In this document: positions 2,032 to 53,049 of the stretch, in pieces | How positions within the stretch are numbered: the stretch's first letter is position 1 | How the letters are laid out: each line of letters starts with the position of its first letter | Origin: Candidatus Kaiserbacteria bacterium | GTDB taxonomy: Bacteria; Patescibacteriota; Minisyncoccia; Phycocordibacterales; UBA918 | Assembly (NCBI GenBank): GCA_031430855.1 | Contig: JANPCG010000013.1 | Coordinates: 182,893-246,892 of the forward strand | Direction of reading: 5' to 3' | DNA length: 64,000 nt | The notes under the pieces: generated by a model | What the model saw: the letters and a program-made list of their open reading frames with translations, nothing else | Databases searched by the model: none | Told to the model about the DNA's origin: nothing | Position numbers and translations under genes: made by a program

Positions 2032-3336
2032 ATGACACACTCACGTAACCTCAATTCACCGTATGATTCATTGATTTTTCCTTATATCTTAAGGAATAAC
2101 TCACAATACAGAAAGCGATTTCACATTAGTAACTACCATGAGTTCAAAGTTAATTTTATTTCAGGTACCGAAATTCCTGTAAAATATGATTTTTTATATG
2201 ATCAGAGGTATGAAAAAAAGCTTCAACGGTTAGTTGAATTAGAGACTAAAATTCTCCCACAATCTAATGTTGGAGAGCTTATTGAAAAGTTATATAAAGC
2301 AAAGATTGTTGAGAAGCGAAAGTTACTCATGCTCGTACGTTCTGCGTACGAGGCGCAGGCAAATACAACTGGTGGCTCAGAAGCTGCTCATATGTTTAAT
2401 CAACTTACGAAAGAAGTATTTGGAGCACCGTCACTTGATGTCTTTCGGCAATTAATGTCTACCATTAATGATGACATTAGTTCAGTTGGTTGGGAGTCAA
2501 AAAATTCTGAAGCGTATCATCGGTTTAGTCAAATTGCGCTGGCGAGCGAGGGTGAAAGCACCATTACAAAATTTACTCCAGCTCCACGTAAAGATTTGAG
2601 TGACCATAGCTCGTTTGTGTCAGAGGCGAACGAAGTGGTAGCCTTTTTTAAAGGGAAAATGTTAGCTCTGGGTTTACATGACTGGGCAGTACAAATTAGC
2701 GATAAACCAATTGAGAGTTTTAGAGTGTATGGAAAAAGGAAAGTACTACTGGTGCCGAAAACAAGTGTTATTAAAAGTCGTAAAAATGAACGACGTCTTT
2801 CCATTGATGTAATGGAAGGCTTGTTTGCTCATGAAGTCCTTACACACGTCATACGTGGTGTAAATGGTGCACAATCTGGACTCCTGTTACTGTCTCATGG
2901 TTTAGCTGGATATTTACCTGGGGAAGAGGGCATTGCAACTTTTCGAGAGCAGCAGTATAGCAGTGCGAAAGATTATGCTGGTAAAACGATGTATTTAGCC
3001 TTAGGCTTGGCCTACGGTCTTGACCGAAATGGACAACCAAGAACATTTAGAGAGGTGTATGAGATTTTAAGTGATTACTTTACCCTAAAGTTTGGCGGTT
3101 TTAGTAAAAAAGTACAAGCAAAAGCTTTTGTAACTTGTGCGAGAATTTTTGTCGTAAGTCCACATCAAAATATCCCTCTTATTTTTACTCGAGACATTGT
3201 CTATCGTGAAGGAAATATTGCAATAAACACTGCCGTACAAGCTGATGATACCCTGCTTGAAATATTTGATGTGGGTAAATTTAATCCCGTAAATACTGAA
3301 CACGTTGCAATACTAAAAAGTCTTAATATTATTTAA
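2032..3336 (+). CDS. DUF1704/MATCAP-like zinc carboxypeptidase, paralog 2
   Basis: HEVLTH plus GEEGIATFREQQ, DYAG and RIFVVSPHQNIPLIFTRDIVYREGNIA. Clear tandem paralog of 617..2005. Confidence 0.55.
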   Translation: MTHSRNLNSPYDSLIFPYILRNNSQYRKRFHISNYHEFKVNFISGTEIPVKYDFLYDQRYEKKLQRLVELETKILPQSNVGELIEKLYKAKIVEKRKLLMLVRSAYEAQANTTGGSEAAHMFNQLTKEVFGAPSLDVFRQLMSTINDDISSVGWESKNSEAYHRFSQIALASEGESTITKFTPAPRKDLSDHSSFVSEANEVVAFFKGKMLALGLHDWAVQISDKPIESFRVYGKRKVLLVPKTSVIKSRKNERRLSIDVMEGLFAHEVLTHVIRGVNGAQSGLLLLSHGLAGYLPGEEGIATFREQQYSSAKDYAGKTMYLALGLAYGLDRNGQPRTFREVYEILSDYFTLKFGGFSKKVQAKAFVTCARIFVVSPHQNIPLIFTRDIVYREGNIAINTAVQADDTLLEIFDVGKFNPVNTEHVAILKSLNII

Positions 3337-4091
3337 TCTCTTAGTACAATAGTTGTTACAACAGTATGATCGTATTTTTTGATACTCTCATATTTAAAAA
3401 GTGTGTCTTTGTGAACACAAAGGAATGCCTGGGTAATACATTTGGATGCTTCTTTTGGTTGTTCAAAAATTAACGTATCTGTGGTTACCTTGTCGGTGTC
3501 GAAGGTGTCGGTTTCATATGATCCGGTAGGAAGCTCAATCGAGCAACCTACGGATAGTTTAAAGAGCGCTAGTCCAATACTGGCATTTATTCCGTAAGGA
3601 TTTCTATCTTTACCATGAGAAATCTTTGAGTAGCCATTTTCTATAGCCCAGACATTCATTAAATATTCGGTATAGAGTGACGGTCCTGCAGGCAAACTAT
3701 TATGCTGCCATTCGTTAGGATAGATTCTGTACGCAAAGGTAAGACTCTTAGTTCTCGCTGCAAAAATAGTTGCTCCAACAGATATGTTGTTTTCCTTTAA
3801 TATAAGTATGTAGTAGGGATATTCAGCTTCTTTTCCTAACGTGGTTGCAAAAATGTCATTAACTTTCGGATTATTTTTAACTTGAATAGTAGCGTTGTAA
3901 AGAGGAGTAAACCACTCAAGATGAGTTGAGGTTAAAAGCTCAATGGAATAAGTGACGGTACTCGATTCAATTTTACGTAACGTGGTTTTTATTCGAGATA
4001 AATGATTTTTGCCAAAACCAGCAAATGCGTCATCGGTAAGTTTTTTTGCCCACATATGATGTGAAGGATACGTTATAATCATGAAAATCAA
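3333..4091 (-). CDS. FemAB/Acetyltransf_6-like GNAT-fold protein (putative aminoacyl or peptidyl transferase)
   Basis: C-terminal pattern LYTEYLMNVWAIENGY...NPYG...GLALFKLSVG resembles the Fem-family LLQWEAIKWAKENGY...GLYRFKKGFG block. Overlaps the stop of 2032..3336 by 4 bp. Confidence 0.45.
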   Translation of the reverse strand: MIFMIITYPSHHMWAKKLTDDAFAGFGKNHLSRIKTTLRKIESSTVTYSIELLTSTHLEWFTPLYNATIQVKNNPKVNDIFATTLGKEAEYPYYILILKENNISVGATIFAARTKSLTFAYRIYPNEWQHNSLPAGPSLYTEYLMNVWAIENGYSKISHGKDRNPYGINASIGLALFKLSVGCSIELPTGSYETDTFDTDKVTTDTLIFEQPKEASKCITQAFLCVHKDTLFKYESIKKYDHTVVTTIVLRD

Positions 4092-4206: not shown

Positions 4207-5499
4207 TTGCAAATAAACAGATCCGTCATATTTACTTCTATGTCCTCCAAAAAAGCAATTTTGTTTGTTGAGCAGTATATGCCTAAAACACTTAAAAGTG
4301 TGAGGGATTATTTTGGTGATATTACACTCATAGTCTTGCGCGATATCAAAAATGAAAAAAATGAAAAAAACCGGCACTTTAAATCCGCTGATGTCATTTT
4401 ATATGTTGATTTTTCAAAGTCGTACAAAATTGCTGAAGCCCTCCTTCCGTATCAAGAATCGTTAATCGCAGTAACGGCTCGTGGCGAAGATGGTGCTAAC
4501 AAATTACGGGAGGTTATTCCACACGTACCCTATTTGCGCACGCCAACTGCTGAATCACTTGCGTGGGCAACTGATAAGTATGAGATGCGAAAACGTTTCT
4601 GGCTCTACGATAAAAAAATTACTCCAAAATTCACTAAAGTAAAAGAAAATACTAAAATTGAACGAGAACGAATAATACAAAAAATTAATTTTCCGATGGT
4701 CGTAAAACCAGCAAACTTGCAAGAGAGTATGTTGGTTGCAATATGTTTTCATGAAGAAGAATTAGAAAAAGTGTTACGAAATATCTTTCGACGCTTAAAA
4801 TCAGAGTATAAAAAATTCAACCGAACGCAGTTACCTACAATCATTTCAGAAGAGTATATGGATGGAGATATGTACTCTATTGATAGTTATGTAAACTCGC
4901 GAGGTAAAATATTTCATTGCCCGATGGTGCGGGTAAAAACTGGTCGTAACATTGGTCATGATGATTTTTATAATTACTTGCAAATTACACCAACTGCACT
5001 CAAAAAAGAATCAATCGAAAAGGCACATAACGTAGCCGAGCTGGCTGTTCATGCGCTTGGGTTGCGAAGCACTACTGCTCATATTGAATTGATGAAAATA
5101 GATGATGTTTGGAAGGTGATTGAAGTAGGTCCGCGTGTTGGTGGGTTCAGAGACTTACTGCATGAACTAAGTTGTGATATCGATCATTCTCTTAATGATG
5201 TATTAATTCGTGTACCAAAAAAGCCAATCATTCCAAAAAAATGTAAGGGTTTTGCTGCGGCGATGAAATGGTTTGCTAAGACCGAGGGGATTATTACCGA
5301 AATGAAAGGAATCAAAAAAATTGAGCAACTTGAGTCTTTCAATAGTATTGTCTTTAACAAAAAGATTGGTGACCGAGCACTATTCTCTAAAAATGGGGGA
5401 AAATCTATTTTTAACTTGTTTTTATTTAATGCTGACCGGGCAAAGTTACTTGCGGATATTCGCCGCGTTGAACAACTGATAACCATTAAAGTTAAATAA
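4207..5499 (+). CDS. ATP-grasp family ligase
   Basis: EEYMDGDMYSIDSYV and HIELMKIDDVWKVIEVGPRVGG (E-x-N/G-x-R-x-GG Mg/ATP site) are typical of ATP-grasp carboxylate-amine ligases. Confidence 0.7.
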   Translation: MQINRSVIFTSMSSKKAILFVEQYMPKTLKSVRDYFGDITLIVLRDIKNEKNEKNRHFKSADVILYVDFSKSYKIAEALLPYQESLIAVTARGEDGANKLREVIPHVPYLRTPTAESLAWATDKYEMRKRFWLYDKKITPKFTKVKENTKIERERIIQKINFPMVVKPANLQESMLVAICFHEEELEKVLRNIFRRLKSEYKKFNRTQLPTIISEEYMDGDMYSIDSYVNSRGKIFHCPMVRVKTGRNIGHDDFYNYLQITPTALKKESIEKAHNVAELAVHALGLRSTTAHIELMKIDDVWKVIEVGPRVGGFRDLLHELSCDIDHSLNDVLIRVPKKPIIPKKCKGFAAAMKWFAKTEGIITEMKGIKKIEQLESFNSIVFNKKIGDRALFSKNGGKSIFNLFLFNADRAKLLADIRRVEQLITIKVK

Positions 5500-6348: not shown

Positions 6349-6942
6349 ATGAAATCAATTCTGGCGTTATTGGCAGACTTTGCGAATGGTATTTTTGCCG
6401 TGTTGCTGGCGTCGTACGTGTATCAGACAGAACCCCTCTGGTGGTATTTCATTGTTGGCATGGTTTTGGCAATGTTCCCTGACATTGATGCGGTGCCCGA
6501 ATTGATTGCTCGGGGTAAGGTGGCGGCAAGTGCATTGTATTCCAAAGATCATCGTACTTTCTTACATTATCCAATCTTGTCAGTTTCAATTGGCCTTATA
6601 GCCTGGTATGTATTTGGATTCTGGGGGTTAGTACTCTTGGTCGCGTTTACACTCCATTTAATAAATGATTTATATGGTACTGGCTGGGGTATTCCGTTGC
6701 TCTATCCGTTTACCCGTAAGCGCTATAAGTGTAATCCTGAGTTCTTTTTTAAACGCCGTACACTTCCTGCTGCGACGACTGTTTCAAGTTGGTCAGAGAG
6801 TGAATTACAACAAGCCATAAAGGTGAGTGGTAACGATAATTGGCTTGCTGATACCTATTTAACCCTAAATTGGATTTCGATTACCGAATATTCACTGTTT
6901 ATTATAGCGATAATAGGTATGACAGTCAGTTTGCTATACTAA
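6349..6942 (+). CDS. membrane-bound metal-dependent hydrolase (DUF457/YdjM-like)
   Basis: Multi-TM protein with the H..NDLYGTGWGIPLLYPF segment typical of DUF457. Confidence 0.5.
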   Translation: MKSILALLADFANGIFAVLLASYVYQTEPLWWYFIVGMVLAMFPDIDAVPELIARGKVAASALYSKDHRTFLHYPILSVSIGLIAWYVFGFWGLVLLVAFTLHLINDLYGTGWGIPLLYPFTRKRYKCNPEFFFKRRTLPAATTVSSWSESELQQAIKVSGNDNWLADTYLTLNWISITEYSLFIIAIIGMTVSLLY

Positions 6943-6946
6943 ACCC

Positions 6947-6991
6947 ATGAATACAGATAAGACATTTCCAGAGAGATTTTATTGGGGTGAG
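6947..6991 (+). pseudogene. relic duplicate of the GH1 gene 5' end
   Basis: ATGAATACAGATAAGACATTTCCAGAGAGATTTTATTGGGGTGA (MNTDKTFPERFYWG) versus the true start at 7203, ATGAATAAACAATTTCCACAAGGATTCTACTGGGGTGC (MNKQFPQGFYWG). Confidence 0.5.
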
Positions 6992-7080
6992 AAAAGGGAT
7001 GGGACCCTTTTCGCAAGAGGTTGCCAGCTATTTTGGAAAAATAGCGACAACCTGTACAGCTTCTGTAAGAAGAGAAAACT
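6985..7080 (-). repeat. structured repeat family 1, copy A (reverse orientation)
   Basis: Reverse complement aligns with copies at 31738-31899 and 24515-24595: CTTACAGAAGCTGTACAGGTTGTCG ... TTTTTCCAAAA.AGCTGGCAA ... CTTGCGA-[8-bp hairpin 6991-7012]-TCAC. Confidence 0.6.
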
Positions 7081-7202
7081 CTCGACCCGCTTCCGCAAGA
7101 CCGTGCCAGATATTTCTGAAGCGAAGCGAACAGAATTAACGACACGGTGTACCGTTTCTGTAAGAAACAGACATCAATCAAATTATTTGAAATACTGAAA
7201 CT

Positions 7203-8429
7203 ATGAATAAACAATTTCCACAAGGATTCTACTGGGGTGCAGCCACCGCCTCTTACCAAGTCGAAGGAGGCATCGAAAACACCGATTGGGCCGAAGCCGC
7301 TAGAGCGGGGCGAGTGCCGCAGTGTGGTCTCGCGTGTGATCACTATAATCGGTATGAAGCAGATTTTGATATTGCAAAAAGTCTTGGACATACTGCCCAC
7401 CGATTCTCGGTCGAGTGGGCGCGGATTGAACCTCTGCCCGGTCAATTCAATCAGGAAGCCATTGCTCATTACCGTAGCGTTCTGGCAGCATTAAAACTGC
7501 GCGGCATTACACCGTTTGTTACTTTGTGGCACTTCACGTTACCACTCTGGTTTTCAAAGGCGGGTGGTTTTGAATCGTCTGATGCGCCAGCGATTTTTTC
7601 GCGCTATGCGGCTTTTGTTGTTAATGAATTGGGTGATTATTGTAGTCATTTTGCAACCCTTAATGAGCCAAATGTCTATGCGACACACGGCTATCTCTAT
7701 GGTGCCTGGCCACCGTTCAAGCGGGGTAAGTTTTTATGGAAAAAAATCGGTAAAGAAGATGGCACTTCAGAAAAAACTCACGCTAATGCGCAGTTCATTA
7801 ATTTTTTTGCGTATATGAGAGTCGTGCGTAATTTGGCGAGAGCGCATAATAAGGCTTATGATGCTATTAAAGCGTTGCGACCAGAAGCTCAGATTAGTGT
7901 GGTGAAACACGTACATTATTTTAATGCTGATACCCACTTCTTAAATCGTTTCAAAGCTCGAGTAGCTGCTCAGTTGCAAACCTATAATTTTATGAATCGG
8001 GTGGCAGGCCAGTGTGATGAAATAGGTTTAAATTATTATCGCCATACAAAATTTGGTGATAATCAAAATTACCTTCATACCGATATGGAGTGGGACGTAT
8101 ACCCGAATGGTATTTTTGATGCCATCATGATGCTCCATCGCTACAGAAAACCAATATTTATTGCTGAAGCTGGTTTAGCTGATGAAAACGATGACCTCAG
8201 ACCAGATTACATTCGAGTACAAGTCATGGCTGTATATAGAGCAATCAAAGCTGGCGCTGACGTACGGGGGCATATGTACTGGTCACTGTTAGATAATTAC
8301 GAATGGGCACTTGGGTTCGGGAAGCGGTTTGGGCTTATCGCTATTAATTATGAGACTCAAGAGAGAACGGTGCGTCCTTCAGCATACGTGTATAAGCAAA
8401 TTTGTGAGAGCAATGCCGTAGTAGAATAA
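7203..8429 (+). CDS. glycoside hydrolase family 1 (beta-glucosidase-like)
   Basis: N-terminal FPQGFYWGAATASYQVEGG signature. TLNEP acid/base motif. I-A-E-A-G at the nucleophile position (ITENG-like). Confidence 0.85.
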   Translation: MNKQFPQGFYWGAATASYQVEGGIENTDWAEAARAGRVPQCGLACDHYNRYEADFDIAKSLGHTAHRFSVEWARIEPLPGQFNQEAIAHYRSVLAALKLRGITPFVTLWHFTLPLWFSKAGGFESSDAPAIFSRYAAFVVNELGDYCSHFATLNEPNVYATHGYLYGAWPPFKRGKFLWKKIGKEDGTSEKTHANAQFINFFAYMRVVRNLARAHNKAYDAIKALRPEAQISVVKHVHYFNADTHFLNRFKARVAAQLQTYNFMNRVAGQCDEIGLNYYRHTKFGDNQNYLHTDMEWDVYPNGIFDAIMMLHRYRKPIFIAEAGLADENDDLRPDYIRVQVMAVYRAIKAGADVRGHMYWSLLDNYEWALGFGKRFGLIAINYETQERTVRPSAYVYKQICESNAVVE

Positions 8430-17454: not shown

Positions 17455-17783
17455 GGTGTCTCTAGTGTACTAGATTTTCCCCTCCCTAGAGCGTGGTCTT
17501 TGTGGAGAGTTGTTGACTTACCACAAAAAATCACCAAAGCAAAAGCACCCCTAAGGGTGCTTTTGCCAGTTGTAGAAACTGTTCCATAAAAAGTATCAGA
17601 TGCTAGGCATGAGAAGTGACCAAATGTCACTTCGCAAGACTCATTGAGTTAGTTTGTGAGTATGGACGAAACAGAATAACCAATGAGTTTAAGAGTGAGT
17701 TGGCGAGGCGTACTAAACGTACGATGAGGCGGCTTGCGATAGTTCCAACAACGCAAATGATGTCTTTTTGGGACAGCTGTCTG

Positions 17784-24418: not shown

Positions 24419-24514
24419 CCAAAGCCTCTGAATATAACCCACTGCTTTGTCGTGTGTTTATATCTGTCAGTCGCGGTAGGAATCTGCCGCTTCCTCCAGA
24501 ATCTAGTCGCCTGT

Positions 24515-24595
24515 CTTAACAGAAGCTGTACACCTTTTGGAAATCAAAGATTTCTCAAAAGGTCTTGCGACAGTTTCCCAAACTGTCTCACTCGC
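24515..24595 (+). repeat. structured repeat family 1, copy C (in the groEL 3' UTR)
   Basis: CTTAACAGAAGCTGTACA ... AAGGTCTTGCGA-[GACAGTTT ccc AAACTGTC]-TCACTCGC. Lies between the groEL stop and the terminator at 24641. Confidence 0.6.
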
Positions 24596-24640: not shown

Positions 24641-24673
24641 AAAAAAAGAGTCCTCGTACGGGGCTCTTTTTTG
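24641..24673 (+). terminator. rho-independent terminator of the groESL transcript
   Basis: AGAGTCC-tcgtacg-GGGCTCT stem-loop followed by TTTTTT. Confidence 0.6.
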
Positions 24674-24730
24674 TAATTTAGATAAACGAAAACCGCCGGC
24701 ACAGGGCCGACGGCAGGCGTAAACACGCGC

Positions 24731-31452: not shown

Positions 31453-31477
31453 TCATTTCCCGGACTCATGCGTTCGC

Positions 31478-31612
31478 TGCGGAGAGGGGATTCGAAACTT
31501 ACAGTTTCAGTACCCCAATTGGATACTTTAGTTCGCTTCACTTCTAAAGTCTCTCAATCGGGCTTCGAATCCCCACATGAGTGACATTGAGTCACTCATT
31601 CACCCTCCGCTC
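31478..31612 (+). repeat. tRNA-end-flanked structured repeat family 2, copy Z
   Basis: Left end GCGGAGAGGGGATTCGAA and right end (inverted) CACCCTCCGC both mimic the tRNA-Ser 3' acceptor/T-arm. Internal ACTTACAGTTTCAGTACCCC, GGGCTTCGAATCCCCAC and the hairpin ATGAGTGACATTGAGTCACTCAT. Confidence 0.55.
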
Positions 31613-31630
31613 CTTTATTCCATTCAGTCG

Positions 31631-31717
31631 CGGAGGGTGGGAGATTCGAACTCCCGATCAGATTGCTCCGATACTGCCTTTCCAAGGCAGCGCACTAGGC
31701 CACTATGCGAACCCTCC
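31631..31717 (-). tRNA. tRNA-Ser (anticodon GGA)
   Basis: Reverse complement folds as a cloverleaf: acceptor GGAGGGT/ACCCTCC, anticodon loop cTTGGAAa (GGA), long variable arm, T-arm GGGAGTTCGAATCTCCC. No encoded CCA. Confidence 0.85.
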
Positions 31718-31737: not shown

Positions 31738-31899
31738 ACTTCTTACAGAAGCTGTAAATTCTACGAATTCTGTACAGGTTGTCGTTACTGCGTAACAGGC
31801 AACCTCCTGAAACAATATATTATACTGTTTCAGCCTATCACTCTTTTTCCAAAAGAGCTGGCAAGGTCTTGCGAAAGTCTCCCAGACTTTCTCACACTC
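31738..31899 (+). repeat. structured repeat family 1, copy B (longest)
   Basis: CTTCTTACAGAAGCTGTA ... CAGGTTGTCG ... [50-nt insert with perfect hairpin CTGAAACA/TGTTTCAG] ... TTTTTCCAAAAGAGCTGGCAAGGTCTTGCGA-[GAAAGTCT ccc AGACTTTC]-TCACACTC. Confidence 0.6.
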
Positions 31900-31963
31900 T
31901 GCCACCTCTCCGTGGTGGCGCTATCATACATTATAATTGTCACTCTTTAAAATATCTGTATAC

Positions 31964-38261: not shown

Positions 38262-38792
38262 CTATGCCGAGGCTTTAGCAATCCTTGCTTGTTCTTTGGG
38301 GGTAGCCAGGTCCGTAGACTTGGTAAGGTCGAGGAAGATTGTCCCTTCGATGTGGTCATATTCGTGGAGACATACACGAGCAGCGAGATCGTCGAGGGTT
38401 TCCTCTTCCTGATGGCCATTCCGATTGGTAAACGAGATGGTTAGCGACTTGGGACGTTCAACTCTCCCAAAGATGTCCGGGATACTCAGACAACTTTCCC
38501 AAAGCGTTTCCGTCTCGTCCGAGTACCCAACGATGGTCGGGTTGATAATGGCCTTCGGATCCATCACGAGAGCGTTGGGGTAGCGAGGAGTCGGCCTCGA
38601 AGAGATGATGAAAAGCCGGAGCGGCTGATACACCTGCGGCGCTGCGATGCCGAGACCTTCGGCATCTTGACACGTATACATCATGTCATCGATAAGAGTC
38701 TGGATGTCAGGATCGTGGATGTCTTCGACTTCCTTCGCTTTTCCGCGCAGGATAGGGTGACCAAGCTGGCTGATTTGGAGTAAAGTGGGCAT
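38262..38792 (-). CDS. def: peptide deformylase (copy 1, in a GC-rich patch)
   Basis: GLGIAAPQV, ESCLSIP and HEYDHIEG motifs. Local GC about 55% versus about 45% for the window. Confidence 0.85.
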   Translation of the reverse strand: MPTLLQISQLGHPILRGKAKEVEDIHDPDIQTLIDDMMYTCQDAEGLGIAAPQVYQPLRLFIISSRPTPRYPNALVMDPKAIINPTIVGYSDETETLWESCLSIPDIFGRVERPKSLTISFTNRNGHQEEETLDDLAARVCLHEYDHIEGTIFLDLTKSTDLATPKEQARIAKASA

Positions 38793-41905: not shown

Positions 41906-41912
41906 TCCCTTG

Positions 41913-42043
41913 CTCCCGGGGCAGGAATCGAAGCTTAACGCTTCAGTACATCCTGTCGCTATTTTGTTCGCAAGGTCCAAAATAAGCAGGCAGGGTCTTC
42001 GAATCCTGACACGAGTGACGTTTAGTCACTCGTTTCCGGGGAG
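41913..42043 (+). repeat. tRNA-end-flanked structured repeat family 2, copy X
   Basis: CTCCCGGGGCAGGAATCGAAGCTTAACGCTTCAGTACATCC ... GCAAGGTCC ... GGGTCTTCGAATCCTGACACGAGTGACGTTTAGTCACTCGTTTCCGGGGAG, followed by the terminator-like hairpin CCACACTTGCGTGTGG. Confidence 0.55.
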
Positions 42044-42583
42044 TATATAAAAGTAAAGACCACACTTGCGTGTGGCCTAAACTTTTATATGCTCCAATTG
42101 TTCTGGTCGATTAGAACTTTTTATATGCACAATGATAGCAGGGTGATGGTGCCTTTTTTAAATGTAACACGTCCCAGTAACTAACCGCCAACACAAGGCT
42201 CGCCTAGCGAGTATTCTTTTTCGCATTCTATCTCTACCTGTGATACTTTCCAGATATACATAGCAGAAATAGCGACACAAAGTATAAGAGCGAAGTACAG
42301 AAACTTTTTCATTAAAGAAATTGTACCATGTCTAATTGCGTACATATGATGTCAATGAAATATCAATGTGGTGTATGTGTTCCGTAAGCTGGACGGGTCC
42401 AGAACTCTTGGTAAATAGATTTAGACAAGCAAATTGGTCACAAATTCAAAGAGAATTGGATTGGAGTGGGATTTTGTATTTTTACCAAAGGCAAGTACTT
42501 CAGAACTTGGGTGTATAAAAAAGAAAAACCGCCGCTTCGTTATGAGACGAAGCGTTGGCTTTTCGTCCCACCGAAGTGGCGGT

Positions 42584-43362: not shown

Positions 43363-43492
43363 TTTACTCGCTTCCCGGGCAGGATTCGAAGCTTACAGCT
43401 TCGGTACACCTTGCGGATTTTCTTTCGCAGGCTCAAGAAAAATCTCGCAAGGTCTTCGAATCCTGACGAACGTGACATTTAGTCACGTTCTC
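43363..43492 (+). repeat. tRNA-end-flanked structured repeat family 2, copy Y
   Basis: The left end CCCGGGCAGGATTCGAA is identical to 17 nt of the adjacent tRNA-Asn 3' region. Internal GCTTACAGCTTCGGTACACC, CGCAAGGTCTTCGAATCCTGAC and hairpin GAACGTGACATTTAGTCACGTTC. The right end CTCCCGGGGAGCC is the inverted tRNA 3' end. Confidence 0.55.
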
Positions 43493-43502
43493 CCGGGGAG
43501 CC

Positions 43503-43533
43503 AAAAAATCAAAAACCACACTTGCGTGTGGTT
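43503..43533 (-). terminator. rho-independent terminator of tRNA-Asn
   Basis: CCACAC-ttgc-GTGTGG followed (on the minus strand) by TTTTTGATTTTTT. Confidence 0.6.
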
Positions 43534-43547
43534 AAAGATTTTTACGG

Positions 43548-43619
43548 CTCCCCGGGCAGGATTCGAACCTGCGACCAATCGATTAACAGTCGACTGCTCT
43601 ACCGCTGAGCTACCGAGGA
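43548..43619 (-). tRNA. tRNA-Asn (anticodon GUU)
   Basis: Reverse complement TCCTCGG-TA-GCTC-AGCGGTA-GAGC-A-GTCGA-cTGTTAa-TCGAT-TGGTC-GCAGG-TTCGAAT-CCTGC-CCGGGGA-G. Canonical 72-nt cloverleaf, no encoded CCA. Confidence 0.85.
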
Positions 43620-43897
43620 AGGTGGCTACTACTTTTACCTCATCTACACTTTAGTTTCGAATGACTCGATGCGCAGTCGACTTCGTCGACCTTCGTACCG
43701 AAGCTGTCCACTCATTCGTCTCTTTCATTCGCTTCGCTCTGAAAGATATTGAATGAGTCTTGAGAAGTGACATTGAGTCACTTCTCACTAAGCTACCTAA
43801 GGAAGGTGGCTACTTACTTACCAGAAGTTGGTAAGTTGTTGTATTGTACAGAAAAATCGCTAAAACTCAAATTTTCTAAGGGGAAGTCAGTTAGGTA

Positions 43898-47308: not shown

Positions 47309-47839
47309 TTACGCTGCTTCTTTAATTTCCTTATGCTTCTTGAGATCGTCTTTGTGCCAGACTTTCTCGGCTCGGTCGGTAAAGAGAATGCCGTCGAGGT
47401 GGTCGTACTCATGTTGGATAATTTGGGCCAAGAGAGTCCCCGCTCCACGTTCGTAGACCTTACCGTTCTCGTCGTAGGCACGTAACGTGACATTAGTTGA
47501 ACGCTTCACCAGTCCATAGTATTCAGGAATTGAGAGACAGCCTTCACCTACCTCGTGGGTTTTTTTGGAAAACTTAACAATCTTTGGGTTGATAGCTATG
47601 AGGGTGGGGAGGGCGTCACGGTCTTTACTCTGGTCTTCGATAATAAAAATGCGTTTCGAAACGCCAATTTGAGGAGCGGCAATAGCAACTGCGGTAAAGC
47701 CATCAACTTTGTATGACTTTAGCGCGCTCCGCATATCCTTGAGGATTTTTTTCACTGTCCCATCAGAAAACTCCGCTGGAGTGATTTCCTCGGCAATGGC
47801 ATGTAGGGCGGGATGGTTTGAGGGGACGAGAGTCGTCAT
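47309..47839 (-). CDS. def: peptide deformylase (copy 2, def-fmt arrangement)
   Basis: GFTAVAIAAPQIG, GEGCLSIP and QHEYDHLDG motifs. Start at MTTLVP; the ORF extends to 47890. Confidence 0.85.
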   Translation of the reverse strand: MTTLVPSNHPALHAIAEEITPAEFSDGTVKKILKDMRSALKSYKVDGFTAVAIAAPQIGVSKRIFIIEDQSKDRDALPTLIAINPKIVKFSKKTHEVGEGCLSIPEYYGLVKRSTNVTLRAYDENGKVYERGAGTLLAQIIQHEYDHLDGILFTDRAEKVWHKDDLKKHKEIKEAA

Positions 47840-47934
47840 AGGGTGGTTGTATGGGGTACTATAGCGTATTTGGTTATAAAAATGAAGCAAAACAACAACC
47901 GCAAGGTTGTATGTTTTGCTTCGTTCCCGTTGCT

Positions 47935-48035
47935 GTCATTCCTTACAGGAACAGTACACCCTTTGGATAGTTTCTTCAAAACTATCTCAAATGGTTTTGA
48001 AGAGTGACATTTAGTCACTCTTCAACCCAGGCAGA
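47935..48035 (+). repeat. structured repeat family 2, variant copy V
   Basis: CCTTACAGGAACAGTACACC ... GAAGAGTGACATTTAGTCACTCTTC-AACCCAGGCAG, preceded by CCGCAAGGTTG. Confidence 0.45.
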
Positions 48036-51463: not shown

Positions 51464-52963
51464 CTAGAACTCGTCGAGATAGTTGATTTGTGCTCCCAGG
51501 CTTGCGAGGCGCGCAACGAGGTTCTCGTACCCGCGATTGATACTGTAGATGTTGCGCAGGACTGAACGTCCTTGGGCGCCGAGCATGGCAATTAAGAGGA
51601 TGGTAGCGGGTCGGAGGGCTGGTGGGCAGATGAGTTCAGCGGCACGGAGTGAGGTCGGGCCCGTGATATAGATTCGGTGTGGGTCGGCGAGCACCGTATC
51701 AGCGCCAAGCTTCTCAAGTTCGGTAAAATATATCGCTCGCTTTTCATACATCCAGTCATGAATAAGGGTCTGTCCACTGGCTTGGGTCGCTATGACGGCA
51801 AAGAAGGGGAGATTATCTGCGTTAAGACCCGGGTATGGACGCGAGTGTACTTTCTCAGGCGAAGCATGTAGTTTGCTCGGTTTGATTTTGAGGTCGACTA
51901 ATTTGGTCTGGCCATTATGGGAAAAATACGGTTTTGTGGCAGTATATTGTAATCCCATTTTTTCAAGGACTAAGAGCTCTAGTTCAAGAAATTCAATCGG
52001 AGCGCGTGTGATAGTAATAGCTGAGTTTGTGACAATCGCTGCTGCAATAAAGAACATACTATCAGTTGGGTCTTCAGCGAGGGTGTATTCAAGATTCTGG
52101 TGAATATCAGAAACGCCGGTGACAGTAAGCGTGGTGGTACCAATGCCGTCAATCTGAACGCCAAACAATTTTAAGAATACACAGATCTCCTGCACCATGT
52201 AGTTTGCTGATGCATATTTAATAATGGTGGTGCTCGGTGTCCGGGCCGCGGCAAAAAGTGCATTTTCGGTTACGGTATCGCCTGATTCATAGAGAATAAT
52301 CTCAGTCGGCTTTTTTGCGTCGTATTGCACCTTAAAGGCATCTTCGGTGGTTTCTATGCTCACGCCAAAATGCTCCAGGGCATAAAAATGAGGACGCACG
52401 GTACGACTCCCGAGCTTGCAACCACCGGATTGGGGGAGCGAGAACTGATTAAAGGTGTGAATCAGTGATCCAATAAACATGACAATACTGCGAGTCTTGC
52501 GCGCCGCCTCAATATTAATTTTTTTGAGGTCATATTTTTTAGGTGGTTCAAGGGTGAGAGTGCTTCCGGTCCACGTAATGCGCATTCCAATACTCTCGAG
52601 AACTTCGACGATGCGGTATACCTCTTCGATTTTTGGCATATGGTGCAAAGTGGTCGTGCCGCGATTCAAGAGTGATGCGCACAAGAGCCCCACAGCTCCA
52701 TTTTTGCTCGTATTTGTTTCAATGGTGCCTGACAATTTCTTTTGGCCGACAATTTCTACATTCACGGTCCCGGGGGAAAGGGTAATCAGGTTTTTGCCGA
52801 GGGCATGACTGATTTTCTTTAACATCTCGGCACTAATGTTCTGAGTGCCTGATTCGAGGCGTGCGACGGCACTTTGGGTTGTTTTTAGTTTTTTTGCTAA
52901 CGCCGTTTGGGTGAGTCCAACTGATTCCCGCAAATCCGAGATACGATTACCGATGTTTTCCAT
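51464..52963 (-). CDS. murA: XRE-type HTH domain fused to UDP-GlcNAc 1-carboxyvinyltransferase (MurA/EPT fold)
   Basis: N-terminal LTQTALAKKLKTTQSAVARLESG (HTH_XRE), then MurA-like KLSGTIETNTSKNGAVGLL and active-site Cys in SGGCKLGSR. Start set at MENIGN; the ORF extends to 53044. Confidence 0.6.
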   Translation of the reverse strand: MENIGNRISDLRESVGLTQTALAKKLKTTQSAVARLESGTQNISAEMLKKISHALGKNLITLSPGTVNVEIVGQKKLSGTIETNTSKNGAVGLLCASLLNRGTTTLHHMPKIEEVYRIVEVLESIGMRITWTGSTLTLEPPKKYDLKKINIEAARKTRSIVMFIGSLIHTFNQFSLPQSGGCKLGSRTVRPHFYALEHFGVSIETTEDAFKVQYDAKKPTEIILYESGDTVTENALFAAARTPSTTIIKYASANYMVQEICVFLKLFGVQIDGIGTTTLTVTGVSDIHQNLEYTLAEDPTDSMFFIAAAIVTNSAITITRAPIEFLELELLVLEKMGLQYTATKPYFSHNGQTKLVDLKIKPSKLHASPEKVHSRPYPGLNADNLPFFAVIATQASGQTLIHDWMYEKRAIYFTELEKLGADTVLADPHRIYITGPTSLRAAELICPPALRPATILLIAMLGAQGRSVLRNIYSINRGYENLVARLASLGAQINYLDEF

Positions 52964-53049
52964 ATTTTTACAACATAGCATATCTGCTATGTTGGTGTCA
53001 TTGTTATAATGGTGGAAAACCAGTGGTGGTGGTACACTGTGCACGCTAT

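Follow-up and report, generated by a model that had tools for sequence, protein, structure and literature searches.

A three-hairpin element dispersed among Patescibacteria is probably a non-autonomous palindromic repeat maintained at the DNA level

Introduction

Rickettsia palindromic elements (RPEs), reportedly described by Ogata et al. in 2000, are said to be small palindromic repeats of the reduced Rickettsia genomes, where they lie between genes, in or near RNA genes, and in frame within proteins. We know of no transposase for RPEs. Repetitive extragenic palindromic (REP) sequences, together with bacterial interspersed mosaic elements (BIMEs) and REPINs, are likewise non-autonomous; their hairpins undergo compensatory change, occur as singles or inverted pairs, and are neutral with respect to the strand of neighboring genes. 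Patescibacteria (the candidate phyla radiation, CPR) have genomes that are among the smallest and most streamlined known in bacteria. Here we describe a family of three-hairpin elements from this group, based on a 64,000-nucleotide (64-kb) stretch of DNA from a Candidatus Kaiserbacteria bacterium (GenBank assembly GCA_031430855.1, contig JANPCG010000013.1, positions 182,893 to 246,892), hereafter called the window, and on related loci from other genomes. We conclude that the element is probably a non-autonomous, DNA-level palindromic repeat of Patescibacteria.

The family belongs to the broad kind of small palindromic repeats exemplified by REPs and RPEs, and these two are its closest described counterparts. 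Compared by properties rather than by sequence, RPEs and the present elements are both small, non-autonomous and palindromic, reside in reduced genomes, and can lie in frame within proteins without breaking the reading frame. However, RPEs belong to one genus, whereas the three-hairpin family has a highly conserved core found in many divergent lineages of Patescibacteria, and its copies can be accompanied by partial target duplications and by wrappers made of tRNA ends. A REP is a single, species-specific hairpin of 20-40 nt with a GTAG or CGTC tag, whereas the elements described here comprise three hairpins in 67-100 nt and carry other motifs. Most copies are intergenic, but some reside inside coding sequences and tRNA gene copies, unlike the extragenic REPs. 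Furthermore, neither a REP-associated tyrosine transposase (RAYT) gene nor another Y1 transposase gene is present among the 60 open reading frames (ORFs) of the window or the ORFs near 103 copies of the element.

Other mobile or structured elements share some of these characteristics. Palindrome-associated transposable elements (PATEs) derived from IS200/IS605 also have subterminal hairpins and lack both terminal inverted repeats (TIRs) and target-site duplications (TSDs), but the family described here has no fixed target tetranucleotide, no replication-strand bias and no nearby TnpA/TnpB gene. Classical miniature inverted-repeat transposable elements (MITEs), such as Correia/NEMIS, ERIC, RUP and BOX, are also short, dispersed, non-autonomous and foldable, and may alter the expression of neighboring genes; however, MITEs have TIRs and a short fixed TSD, both of which we looked for and found absent. 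Integron attC sites similarly retain a folded single-strand structure and short boxes while their sequence varies. In contrast to our element, an attC site is one imperfect palindrome with R and L boxes, located at cassette ends and recognized by IntI; R''/L''-L'/R' boxes with GTTRRRY are missing from the family consensus, and the window encodes no integrase. The palindromic and GC-cluster elements of mitochondria (yeast, Volvox, Nematomorpha) offer an analogy only, their sequences and hosts being unrelated. Three reports on these mitochondrial elements describe selfish hairpins that invade genes and RNA genes of small genomes, with stems that are perfect Watson-Crick palindromes (PMC2670323, PMC4478555, PMC6649704). 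Thus, the family lacks defining features of MITEs, REP/RAYT elements, PATEs and attC sites and matches no Rfam family, and it is unusual in its phylum-scale conservation, three helices, tRNA-end wrappers and coupled upstream ORFs.

Results

Ten copies of the element in one window

A search of the window with blastn and with a covariance model (CM) built from 59 copies locates ten copies that together fill approximately 1.5% of its length. Seven of these are clear (A, A2, B, C, D, E and F) and three are long and divergent (G, H and I) (Table 1). A preliminary description had listed three copies, A, B and C, with a single covarying helix. Alignment confirms these three, including the opposite orientation of copy A, but seven further copies had been overlooked; similarly, the reported helix (P3, below) is genuine, but two more covarying helices (P1 and P2) had gone unrecognized. 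A 17-nt module, CTTACAGAAGCTGTACA, matches the window six times with three or fewer mismatches, whereas shuffled sequences predict 0.11 matches. We call the strand read in the preliminary description the pattern strand, and its complement, which reads GTGAGA-...-CTGTAAGAAG, the T strand. Copy A, when read on the plus strand of the window, is in the T-strand sense and thus begins with GTGAGA, in the same sense as the downstream glycoside hydrolase family 1 (GH1) gene.

The copies are independent insertions, and the flanks of A, B, C, D, E and F are unrelated to one another. The exception within the window is the pair H and I, which represents one diverged segmental duplicate (alignment 77% identical) whose similarity reaches beyond a hairpin, CCACACTTGCGTGTGG, to take in a remnant of the 3' end of tRNA-Asn. 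This hairpin resembles a terminator and is present at both 42057-42085 and 43510-43535; it follows the tRNA-Asn gene as well as the 3'-end remnant 1.46 kb away.

Several details of the first three copies can be refined. The 8-bp stems originally assigned to them (GAAAAGGG, GACAGTTT and GAAAGTCT) are correct in sequence, but each merely caps a longer hairpin with a conserved base. Copy B adjoins tRNA-Ser, 21 nt upstream of the tRNA 5' end, and carries the perfect hairpin CTGAAACA/TGTTTCAG within its insert; it looks like a composite in which a second half of P2 is nested. Copy C does reside downstream of the groEL stop codon, and from position alone it is plausibly transcribed as part of the groEL 3' untranslated region. 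The terminator said to follow it was not called by a simple terminator scan, although a hairpin and then a T-run can be read at approximately 24645-24675, 3' of this copy.

Table 1. Copies of the three-hairpin element and associated features, in window coordinates
Feature	Coordinates	Strand	Basis or remark
Decayed duplicate of the first 13 GH1 codons (MNTDKTFPERFYWG), abutting the GTGAGA end of copy A	6947..6986	+	Sequence comparison
83-codon upstream ORF, from the duplicated ATG through copies A and A2	6947..7198	+	Stop, then 4 nt, then GH1 start at 7203
Copy A	6987..7072	-	CM 80.2 bits; fold z -6.5
Copy A2, tandem second copy, P3 degenerate	7082..7167	-	CM 38.3 bits
Intact GH1 gene, the target whose 5' end is duplicated	7203..8429	+	Pfam Glyco_hydro_1, E = 3e-75
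Copy F, between MFS transporter gene and RNase J gene; P1 degenerate	17609..17696	-	CM 38.2 bits
Copy C, 95 nt 3' of the groEL stop codon (24418)	24513..24591	+	CM 71.7 bits
Copy G, long variant 3' of tRNA-Ser	31470..31612	+	Weak CM match at 31495-31585; three-way junction, z -8.7
tRNA-Ser(GGA), with copy G on one side and copy B on the other	31630..31717	-	ARAGORN and Rfam
Copy B, composite, 157 nt, ~55 nt nested in P2	31739..31895	+	CM 48.7 bits
Decayed duplicate of tRNA-Ser 5' end and upstream sequence, abutting the GTGAGA end of copy B	31896..31930	-	Local alignment
Copy I, long variant with ends like the tRNA-Asn 3' end	41912..42042	+	Sequence and fold
Copy H, long variant 3' of tRNA-Asn and its terminator-like hairpin	43372..43502	+	CM 23.9 bits; z -8.6
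tRNA-Asn(GTT), between copy H (3') and copy D (5')	43546..43619	-	ARAGORN and Rfam
Fold-back hairpin GGTCGACGAAGTCGACTGC between copy D and tRNA-Asn	43655..43690	-	Read directly from sequence
Copy D, 72 nt upstream of tRNA-Asn; T strand coincides with that of the tRNA	43691..43788	+	CM 61.8 bits
Decayed duplicate of tRNA-Asn 5' end (to about position 20) and ~18 nt upstream	43789..43830	-	Alignment, z 13
Copy E, 49 nt upstream of a peptide deformylase gene; T strand in sense with the gene	47939..48025	+	CM 60 bits

Three adjacent hairpins preserved by compensatory change

Every copy can be folded, on either strand, into three adjacent hairpins named P1, P2 and P3. The typical element is 67-100 nt long, and composite or wrapped copies reach approximately 160 nt. 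P1 consists of a 4-5 bp stem of free sequence (CTTC/GAAG, GTCAC/GTGAC, GTGTC/GACAC, GCCTC/GAGGC or GCATC/GATGC, and GAAGC/GCTTC or GAAAC/GTTTC in the long variants) that is capped by the conserved loop TTACA and followed by the conserved linker CTGTACA. P2 is long and hypervariable, with a conserved G.T pair and a bulge (or small internal loop) a few pairs above its base. A single nucleotide separates it from P3, an 11-12 bp hairpin with a variable top and a conserved base, TGCGA/TCTCA, arranged around a C.T mismatch. Overall, the conserved motifs are the TTACA loop, CTGTACA, and TCTTGCGA/TCTCAC. A 5' mini-hairpin formed by ACAG-AAG-CTGT, suggested by RNAalifold, was discarded, as the stem that covaries is CTTC/GAAG and its equivalents around TTACA.

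The P3 loop takes one of three forms: CCC, ATTKA, or a conserved 11-mer, TCCAAGTATTC, present at 13 loci. On the T strand this 11-nt loop reads GAATACTTGGA (L013, L015, L024, L030, L042, L046, L049, L051, L058, L062, L066, L067 and L071; numbers with the prefix L denote individual loci). The same loop caps a different stem (GCCC/GGGC) in a partial neighboring element at L042 1550-1570, and for this reason the 11-mer itself seems to be a recognized motif.

The proposal that base pairing is preserved within constant flanks is strongly supported, and for three helices, by 101 distinct copies. Standard pairs occupy 96.9% of the paired cells of the CM alignment, compared with 82.4% in shuffles, and double-sided changes are found in 238 cells versus 66. 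When the 3' partners are slid by one to three columns, pairing falls to 47% or less. Single-stranded DNA folds of the copies are likewise far more stable than those of shuffled sequence (z -5.7 to -8.7), whichever strand is folded. The conserved nucleotides are confined to loops, linkers and stem bases, whereas the stems retain pairing alone, and because of this division of labor we infer that both shape and short motifs are recognized. The conserved loops, linker and stem bases probably form the recognition surface for some trans-acting factor.

A family spread across Patescibacteria

An exact-pattern scan of 185,579 species genomes (ACAGAAGCTGTAMA, a gap of 20-50 nt, then TCTTGCGA) returned at least 80 loci. 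Among the matches listed, 78 of 80 come from approximately 60 assemblies of Patescibacteria, with five or fewer loci per assembly. The other two, in a Photobacterium and a Gemmatimonadota genome, look like chance matches. Carrier assemblies are labeled Kaiser-, Zambryski-, Taylor-, Nomura- and Paceibacteria, Parcubacteria, and 'Saccharibacteria'; the last label may be generic in some third-party assemblies, because locus L080 has flanks in common with Paceibacteria contigs. Application of the CM to the pattern-scan loci and the window yields 103 copies from 79 sources. An exact-pattern scan of 2.9 million viral contigs gave no matches and hence no support for a viral vector.

The window is syntenic with contigs of metagenome-assembled genomes (MAGs) deposited as Candidatus Kaiserbacteria and Patescibacteria group, at 68-75% nucleotide identity, which identifies its source as a patescibacterium of the Parcubacteria type. 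Matches to the GroEL of the window come exclusively from metagenome contigs. The core of the element is approximately 90% identical between genomes whose proteins are 55-70% identical. Copy A is 92.7% identical to the orthologous copy in L007, where the flanking genes are 69-74% identical.

Two assemblies carry larger, lineage-specific repeat units around the core: copies in CAYGHQ01 (L014, L019, L032, L049 and L056) share extended flanks of 30-40 nt on each side, as do those in CAZNUU01 (L012, L025, L064 and L072). Despite these common flanks, P2 is wholly different between the CAYGHQ01 copies.

The family appears to be undescribed. At the gathering score, Rfam reports solely tRNAs in the window, and tRNAs plus one group I intron at the five loci searched; even at E values up to 10, nothing meaningful is returned around copies A/A2 and H/D. 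A full-text literature search with the core sequence, as DNA or RNA and in both orientations, produced no match, and keyword searches on repeats in Patescibacteria or CPR found no description of the family. A study of tRNA introns in Patescibacteria makes no mention of three-hairpin elements (PMC13011429).

Strand symmetry and translatability favor a DNA-level element

It had been suggested that selection acts on the element either as RNA or as single-stranded DNA. Maintenance at the level of structure is evident, and the data lean toward a DNA-level element rather than a dedicated RNA gene because wobble pairs are rare and equally distributed between the strands, orientation is random, copies lie in frame within proteins in both directions, and no Rfam family matches. 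Functional RNAs usually contain many wobble pairs, and on one strand only. With the conserved G.T pair of P2 left aside, the approximately 1,700 pairs of the alignment include 13 G.T and 14 A.C pairs. Although folding as RNA favors the T strand, which has the lower minimum free energy in 79 of 101 copies, this preference finds no backing in the wobble-pair count, and we therefore leave the strand unassigned.

Orientation is similarly balanced. Relative to upstream ORFs, 44 copies are in the same and 45 in the opposite orientation, and relative to downstream ORFs the numbers are 49 and 41. The pattern strand coincides with the G-rich strand at 26 loci and with the C-rich strand at 32 (|skew| > 0.05; p = 0.51); in the window, where skew is positive throughout, three copies are on the minus strand and seven on the plus strand. 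Since the flanks of the pattern-scan loci are unrelated between copies, no promoter or terminator travels with the element.

The element is also translatable. Stop codons are depleted in five of the six frames: on the pattern strand, the share of copies without a stop is 52-66% in every frame, and on the T strand it is 43% and 26% in two frames, compared with 14% in shuffles. Copies that lie in frame within proteins are found in both senses. An ORF of the alcohol dehydrogenase type at L015 has an insert of about 60 amino acids that splits its ADH_zinc_N domain at profile position 42/43 and contains the element in the pattern-strand sense. At L068 the element splits TsaE at position 64/65 in the T-strand sense, and three other TsaE sequences among the loci lack the insert. 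A protein-database search with concatenated element translations found nothing at E ≤ 0.001, a result of little weight given that the matches are too short for that database.

Element-rich non-coding stretches (L042 1337-1792, L063, L046, L058 and others) contain spurious ORFs of 100-190 amino acids, a consequence of the lack of stop codons in the element, and annotation of MAGs is likely to list these as hypothetical proteins.

Gain, loss and the anatomy of junctions

The idea that the element is mobile is supported by the presence or absence of copies among relatives. In L007 and L121, two elements in inverted orientation lie 29-31 nt apart between two genes that overlap in the window, and the same site is empty in L006; inverted pairs of elements are present in L060 as well. 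The GH1 proteins of L006 and L121 are 96% identical, yet these loci differ in the types and numbers of their elements. Copy A2 is confined to the window lineage, the orthologous sites in L006, L007 and L060 each carrying a single element.

Comparison of the filled sites (L121, L007) with the empty site (L006) reveals neither TIRs nor a target duplication. Rather, GT and A-rich microhomologies of 2-5 nt are present and approximately 5 nt are lost. In general, junctions are marked by microhomologies of 1-5 nt or by the loss of a few nucleotides. At the tRNA and gene targets described below, the microhomology is 1-4 nt, with G or GTG at one end and AG or GAAG at the other. The T-strand ends, GTGAGA... 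and ...CTGTAAGAAG, are not reverse complements of each other, and terminal inverted repeats are thus lacking. Flanks beside the GTGAGA end (CACC, AGGC, TGGG, GCCG, AGAG and ATGA) have only a purine-G tendency in common.

tRNA genes as neighbors, targets and wrappers

A tRNA gene is located no more than 300 nt from 15 of the 103 copies, compared with an expectation of 4.6%. Moreover, in 14 of 95 testable copies the sequence abutting the GTGAGA end is a significant duplicate, 25-83 nt long, of sequence located 3-80 nt past the other end. The duplicated targets are tRNA-Asn, broken at position 24/26 (window copy D, L021, L037, L074 and L018); tRNA-Ser (copy B); tRNA-Phe (L062 and L013); the 3' end of a tRNA-Leu on the other strand (L016); the anticodon loop of a second tRNA-Glu copy in opposite orientation (L053); the 5' end of rnhB (L078); and the 5' end of GH1. 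The layout begins with approximately 10-20 nt of upstream sequence and the first 25-60 nt of the gene, followed by the element, then 4-15 nt of gene continuation, and finally the complete gene together with the upstream sequence that belongs to it. In every case the interrupted gene has an intact counterpart next door. The duplicates abut the GTGAGA end exactly, are variable in length, and do not flank the element symmetrically; this partial target duplication is not a simple staggered-cut duplication.

At tRNA genes, the short continuation precedes an inverted copy of itself, and the two form a fold-back hairpin. At copy D, where the tRNA-Asn duplicate abuts the GTGAGA end, the 3' arm of this hairpin is antisense to tRNA-Asn positions 23-32, and equivalents exist in L074, L021 and L037. 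The entire arrangement of tRNA-Asn and element recurs in L021, L037, L074 and L018.

A related phenomenon is seen in the long variants. Copy G is wrapped in sequence from the T-loop and acceptor 3' end of tRNA-Ser, copied both antisense and sense (GGGGATTCGAA / TTCGAATCCCC; CGGAGAGG / CCCTCCG), copy H is wrapped in the corresponding antisense and sense copies from tRNA-Asn, and the long variant L012:1024, located 3' of tRNA-Val, is wrapped in copies of the T-loop and acceptor 3' end of that tRNA. All three fold as three-way junctions. Copy I has tRNA-Asn-type ends like those of H, but no tRNA gene stands beside it. The long variants share with tRNAs only the T-loop and acceptor 3' sequence, both sense and antisense; no cloverleaf is detected in G, H or I, and ARAGORN and Rfam call just the two true tRNAs of the window.

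We also considered the idea that the element is a tRNA intron and rejected it. ARAGORN with introns allowed rebuilds no tRNA across the element, the tRNA pieces are partial, and an intact tRNA lies alongside. True introns are nevertheless nearby in some relatives. In L074 (5060-5349, plus strand) the anticodon loop of the real tRNA-Asn is interrupted by a group I intron (Rfam RF00028, 102.5 bits), and the tRNA-Asn downstream of the element in L018 is likewise interrupted in its anticodon loop; the element-bearing pseudo-tRNA-Asn copies stop at about the same anticodon-loop position as the intron site. Group I introns of this sort have been reported in Patescibacteria (PMC13011429). At L022 (~3450-3900), the element is positioned exactly at the junction between tandem units of approximately 130 nt, and there the apparent duplication is probably older than the element.

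Repeated occupation of a site upstream of GH1

The GH1 gene of the window provides a further record of gain and loss. We compared 80 metagenome loci around orthologues of the gene, in addition to the window, L006, L007 and L060. An element resides just upstream of GH1 in seven of the 80 metagenome loci and in the latter four, or 11 in total (the window and L006, L007, L060, L090, L104, L108, L109, L112, L121 and L140, all with the same type of architecture), whereas approximately 58 sites are empty. On the gene tree the occupied loci are dispersed over at least six places, the empty locus L106 falls within a clade that is otherwise occupied, and close relatives have differing element types or numbers. 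This pattern implies that the site gained an element repeatedly, that clean losses were frequent, or that other copies replaced the resident one.

Empty sites carry no pseudo-fragment, and in these the promoter-like sequence TTGCTATACT precedes the ATG by 8-12 nt. This extended -10-like sequence (TGnTATACT) is found at that distance from the GH1 ATG in most orthologues (L086-L165) and at 6929-6946 in the window, and its placement implies a leaderless or near-leaderless mRNA. At occupied sites, the order is promoter, duplicated first ~13 codons (..FPxGFYWG), element in the T-strand sense, short A/T-rich spacer, and real gene; in the window, the promoter-like TTTGCTATACT is just upstream of the duplicated GH1 start at 6947. 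An upstream ORF opens at the duplicated start, continues across the element and ends 2-6 nt short of the real ATG in the window, L006, L007, L060 and L090; in L112 it overlaps the real start as ATGA. We infer that this arrangement is a form of translational coupling, which rescues a gene whose start was moved away from the mRNA 5' end.

Other features of the window

Two peptide deformylase genes are encoded within 10 kb, at 38265-38792 and 47312-47890 on the minus strand (Pep_deformylase E = 1.6e-44 and 9e-43), and copy E is upstream of one of them. A 526-amino-acid ORF at 51467-53044 (minus strand) is an unusual fusion of an N-terminal HTH_3 domain and a full EPSP_synthase (MurA/AroA-type) domain. 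Near one end of the window, adjacent paralogous ORFs at 617-2002 and 2032-3333 (plus strand) have weak matches to MATCAP (microtubule-associated tyrosine carboxypeptidase) and are followed by an ATP-grasp gene at 4207-5496.

Discussion

Competing explanations for the three-hairpin family

Any explanation for the family must reconcile a strongly preserved three-hairpin shape with copies that are scattered, strand-neutral and variably present among relatives. Similarity due to chance or to a single duplicated segment is scarcely credible. H and I are indeed one diverged segmental duplicate, and several CAYGHQ01 and CAZNUU01 copies have extended flanks in common, but six matches where 0.11 are expected, unrelated flanks for copies A-F, and 103 copies in approximately 60 assemblies refute this reading for the family as a whole. 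More serious is the prospect that the element is a structured RNA module, active on any strand that is transcribed or chiefly on the T strand, which serves as a processing or stability signal beside tRNAs or as a 5' leader that controls a gene. Strong covariation with conserved unpaired nucleotides is what such an RNA would exhibit, as are better conservation than the neighboring coding sequence and lower folding energies on the T strand. At GH1 the element does lie within the transcribed leader, with the upstream ORF coupled to the real start, and the long variants fold as a tRNA-like junction with an acceptor-like stem. Against these observations stand the unbiased overall orientation relative to genes, the almost purely Watson-Crick pairing with equally rare G.T and A.C pairs, the unrelated flanks with no conserved promoter or terminator attached, the in-frame copies within proteins in both orientations, the patchy presence and fast replacement at orthologous sites, and the absence of any Rfam match. 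On balance, we regard a dedicated RNA module as unlikely, although there may be side effects at the RNA level near tRNA genes and start codons.

Two further explanations share with ours the premise that DNA is the relevant molecule. The element could be a site recruited, spread and kept by the host, such as a binding site for a nucleoid, topoisomerase or recombination protein, or an uptake signal in naturally competent bacteria. REP elements are bound by gyrase, IHF and Pol I, and uptake sequences show conservation throughout entire families; in a comparable manner, the present family has short motifs conserved group-wide inside a shape that works on both strands, is indifferent to orientation, reaches ten copies per 64 kb in very small genomes, and forms inverted pairs resembling REP/BIME arrangements in L007, L060 and L121. 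However, copies interrupt tRNA gene copies and coding sequences, which a beneficial site has no need to do, many orthologous sites are empty, uptake signals have cores of 9-12 nt at much higher density, and no binding protein is known, so that a host-recruited site strikes us as distinctly unlikely. Alternatively, the element might be of the REP or PATE type and be moved as single-stranded DNA by an HUH (Y1) transposase encoded elsewhere (IS200/IS605 TnpA or RAYT). Hairpins with conserved mismatches and bulges, the lack of TIRs and TSDs, non-autonomy, and the existence of inverted pairs all fit such a mechanism. Even so, there is no conserved target tetra- or pentanucleotide at a fixed end but a purine-G preference alone, and the junctions have microhomology and small deletions rather than exact ends. 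Elements of the IS200/IS605 family insert strand-specifically at replication forks, and the absence of a strand bias relative to GC skew therefore argues against this type of single-strand transposition. With no Y1 transposase among the window ORFs either, we consider transposition by an HUH enzyme improbable.

Some observations do weigh against a non-autonomous, DNA-level repeat, the explanation that we prefer. A core identity of approximately 90% at such protein divergence is unusual for selfish repeats and makes a host function conceivable. Near tRNA genes (within 300 nt), the T strand is the tRNA strand in 12 of 15 copies, and among the 13 copies located no more than 50 nt from a gene start it matches the strand of the gene in 10, which renders an RNA role conceivable at those places. 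No polymorphism is seen at copy C among same-species contigs (L001-L003, 99.4% identical, with the copy in all), and none of the compared genomes contains an insertion recent enough to display both donor and product. Pfam scans of the 60 window ORFs revealed no transposase, reverse transcriptase or integrase domain that might belong to a partner of the element, and clustering of 613 ORFs around 103 copies found no gene family that recurs beside them. Lastly, it is the anatomy of the junctions from which the mode of copying proposed below is deduced.

A possible route of spreading by template switching

We favor template switching over a cut-and-paste transposase because the element has no TIRs or TSDs, its junctions display microhomology and deletions, direct and fold-back duplications accompany it, and it has no strand bias. 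New copies would be made by template-switching DNA synthesis during the repair of breaks or replication forks, with an existing copy serving as filler. The same process could yield the partial direct and inverted (fold-back) duplications of the neighboring gene. Because it is short, foldable and translatable, the element would be tolerated almost anywhere. At GH1, ribosomes might load on the leaderless 5' AUG of the upstream ORF and re-initiate at the real start, such that the insertion is tolerated, and recombination between the two target copies could later remove the element cleanly, as in the empty locus L106.

A bolder version of this model, which we find doubtful, would make the family a new class of bacterial mobile DNA that lacks a transposase of its own. 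Template-switching repair, or a reverse transcriptase, would insert its members as filler in tRNA genes and in the opening codons of leaderless genes. Every insertion would create a duplication or wrapper derived from the target, which would let the host gene remain functional and the element be excised cleanly. In this version, the wrapped forms beside tRNAs might also be functional mimics of tRNA ends that act as decoys or guides.

Implications

Group I introns are the only intervening elements that we found reported for Patescibacteria (PMC13011429). The family described here is either a very successful selfish element or a shared DNA/RNA recognition system. Across thousands of MAGs, a CM of the family could serve to annotate these elements, which at present give rise to spurious ORFs and pseudo-tRNA fragments, and interrupted tRNA copies or genes with inserts of 60 amino acids should not be taken for assembly errors. 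The GH1 locus offers a natural case in which a leaderless start codon is re-used to begin an upstream ORF coupled to the real start, and the microhomology and the direct and fold-back duplications at the junctions point to spreading through repair. If the family does prove to be a new class of transposase-free mobile DNA, it would have a major part in shaping the smallest bacterial genomes on a phylum-wide scale.

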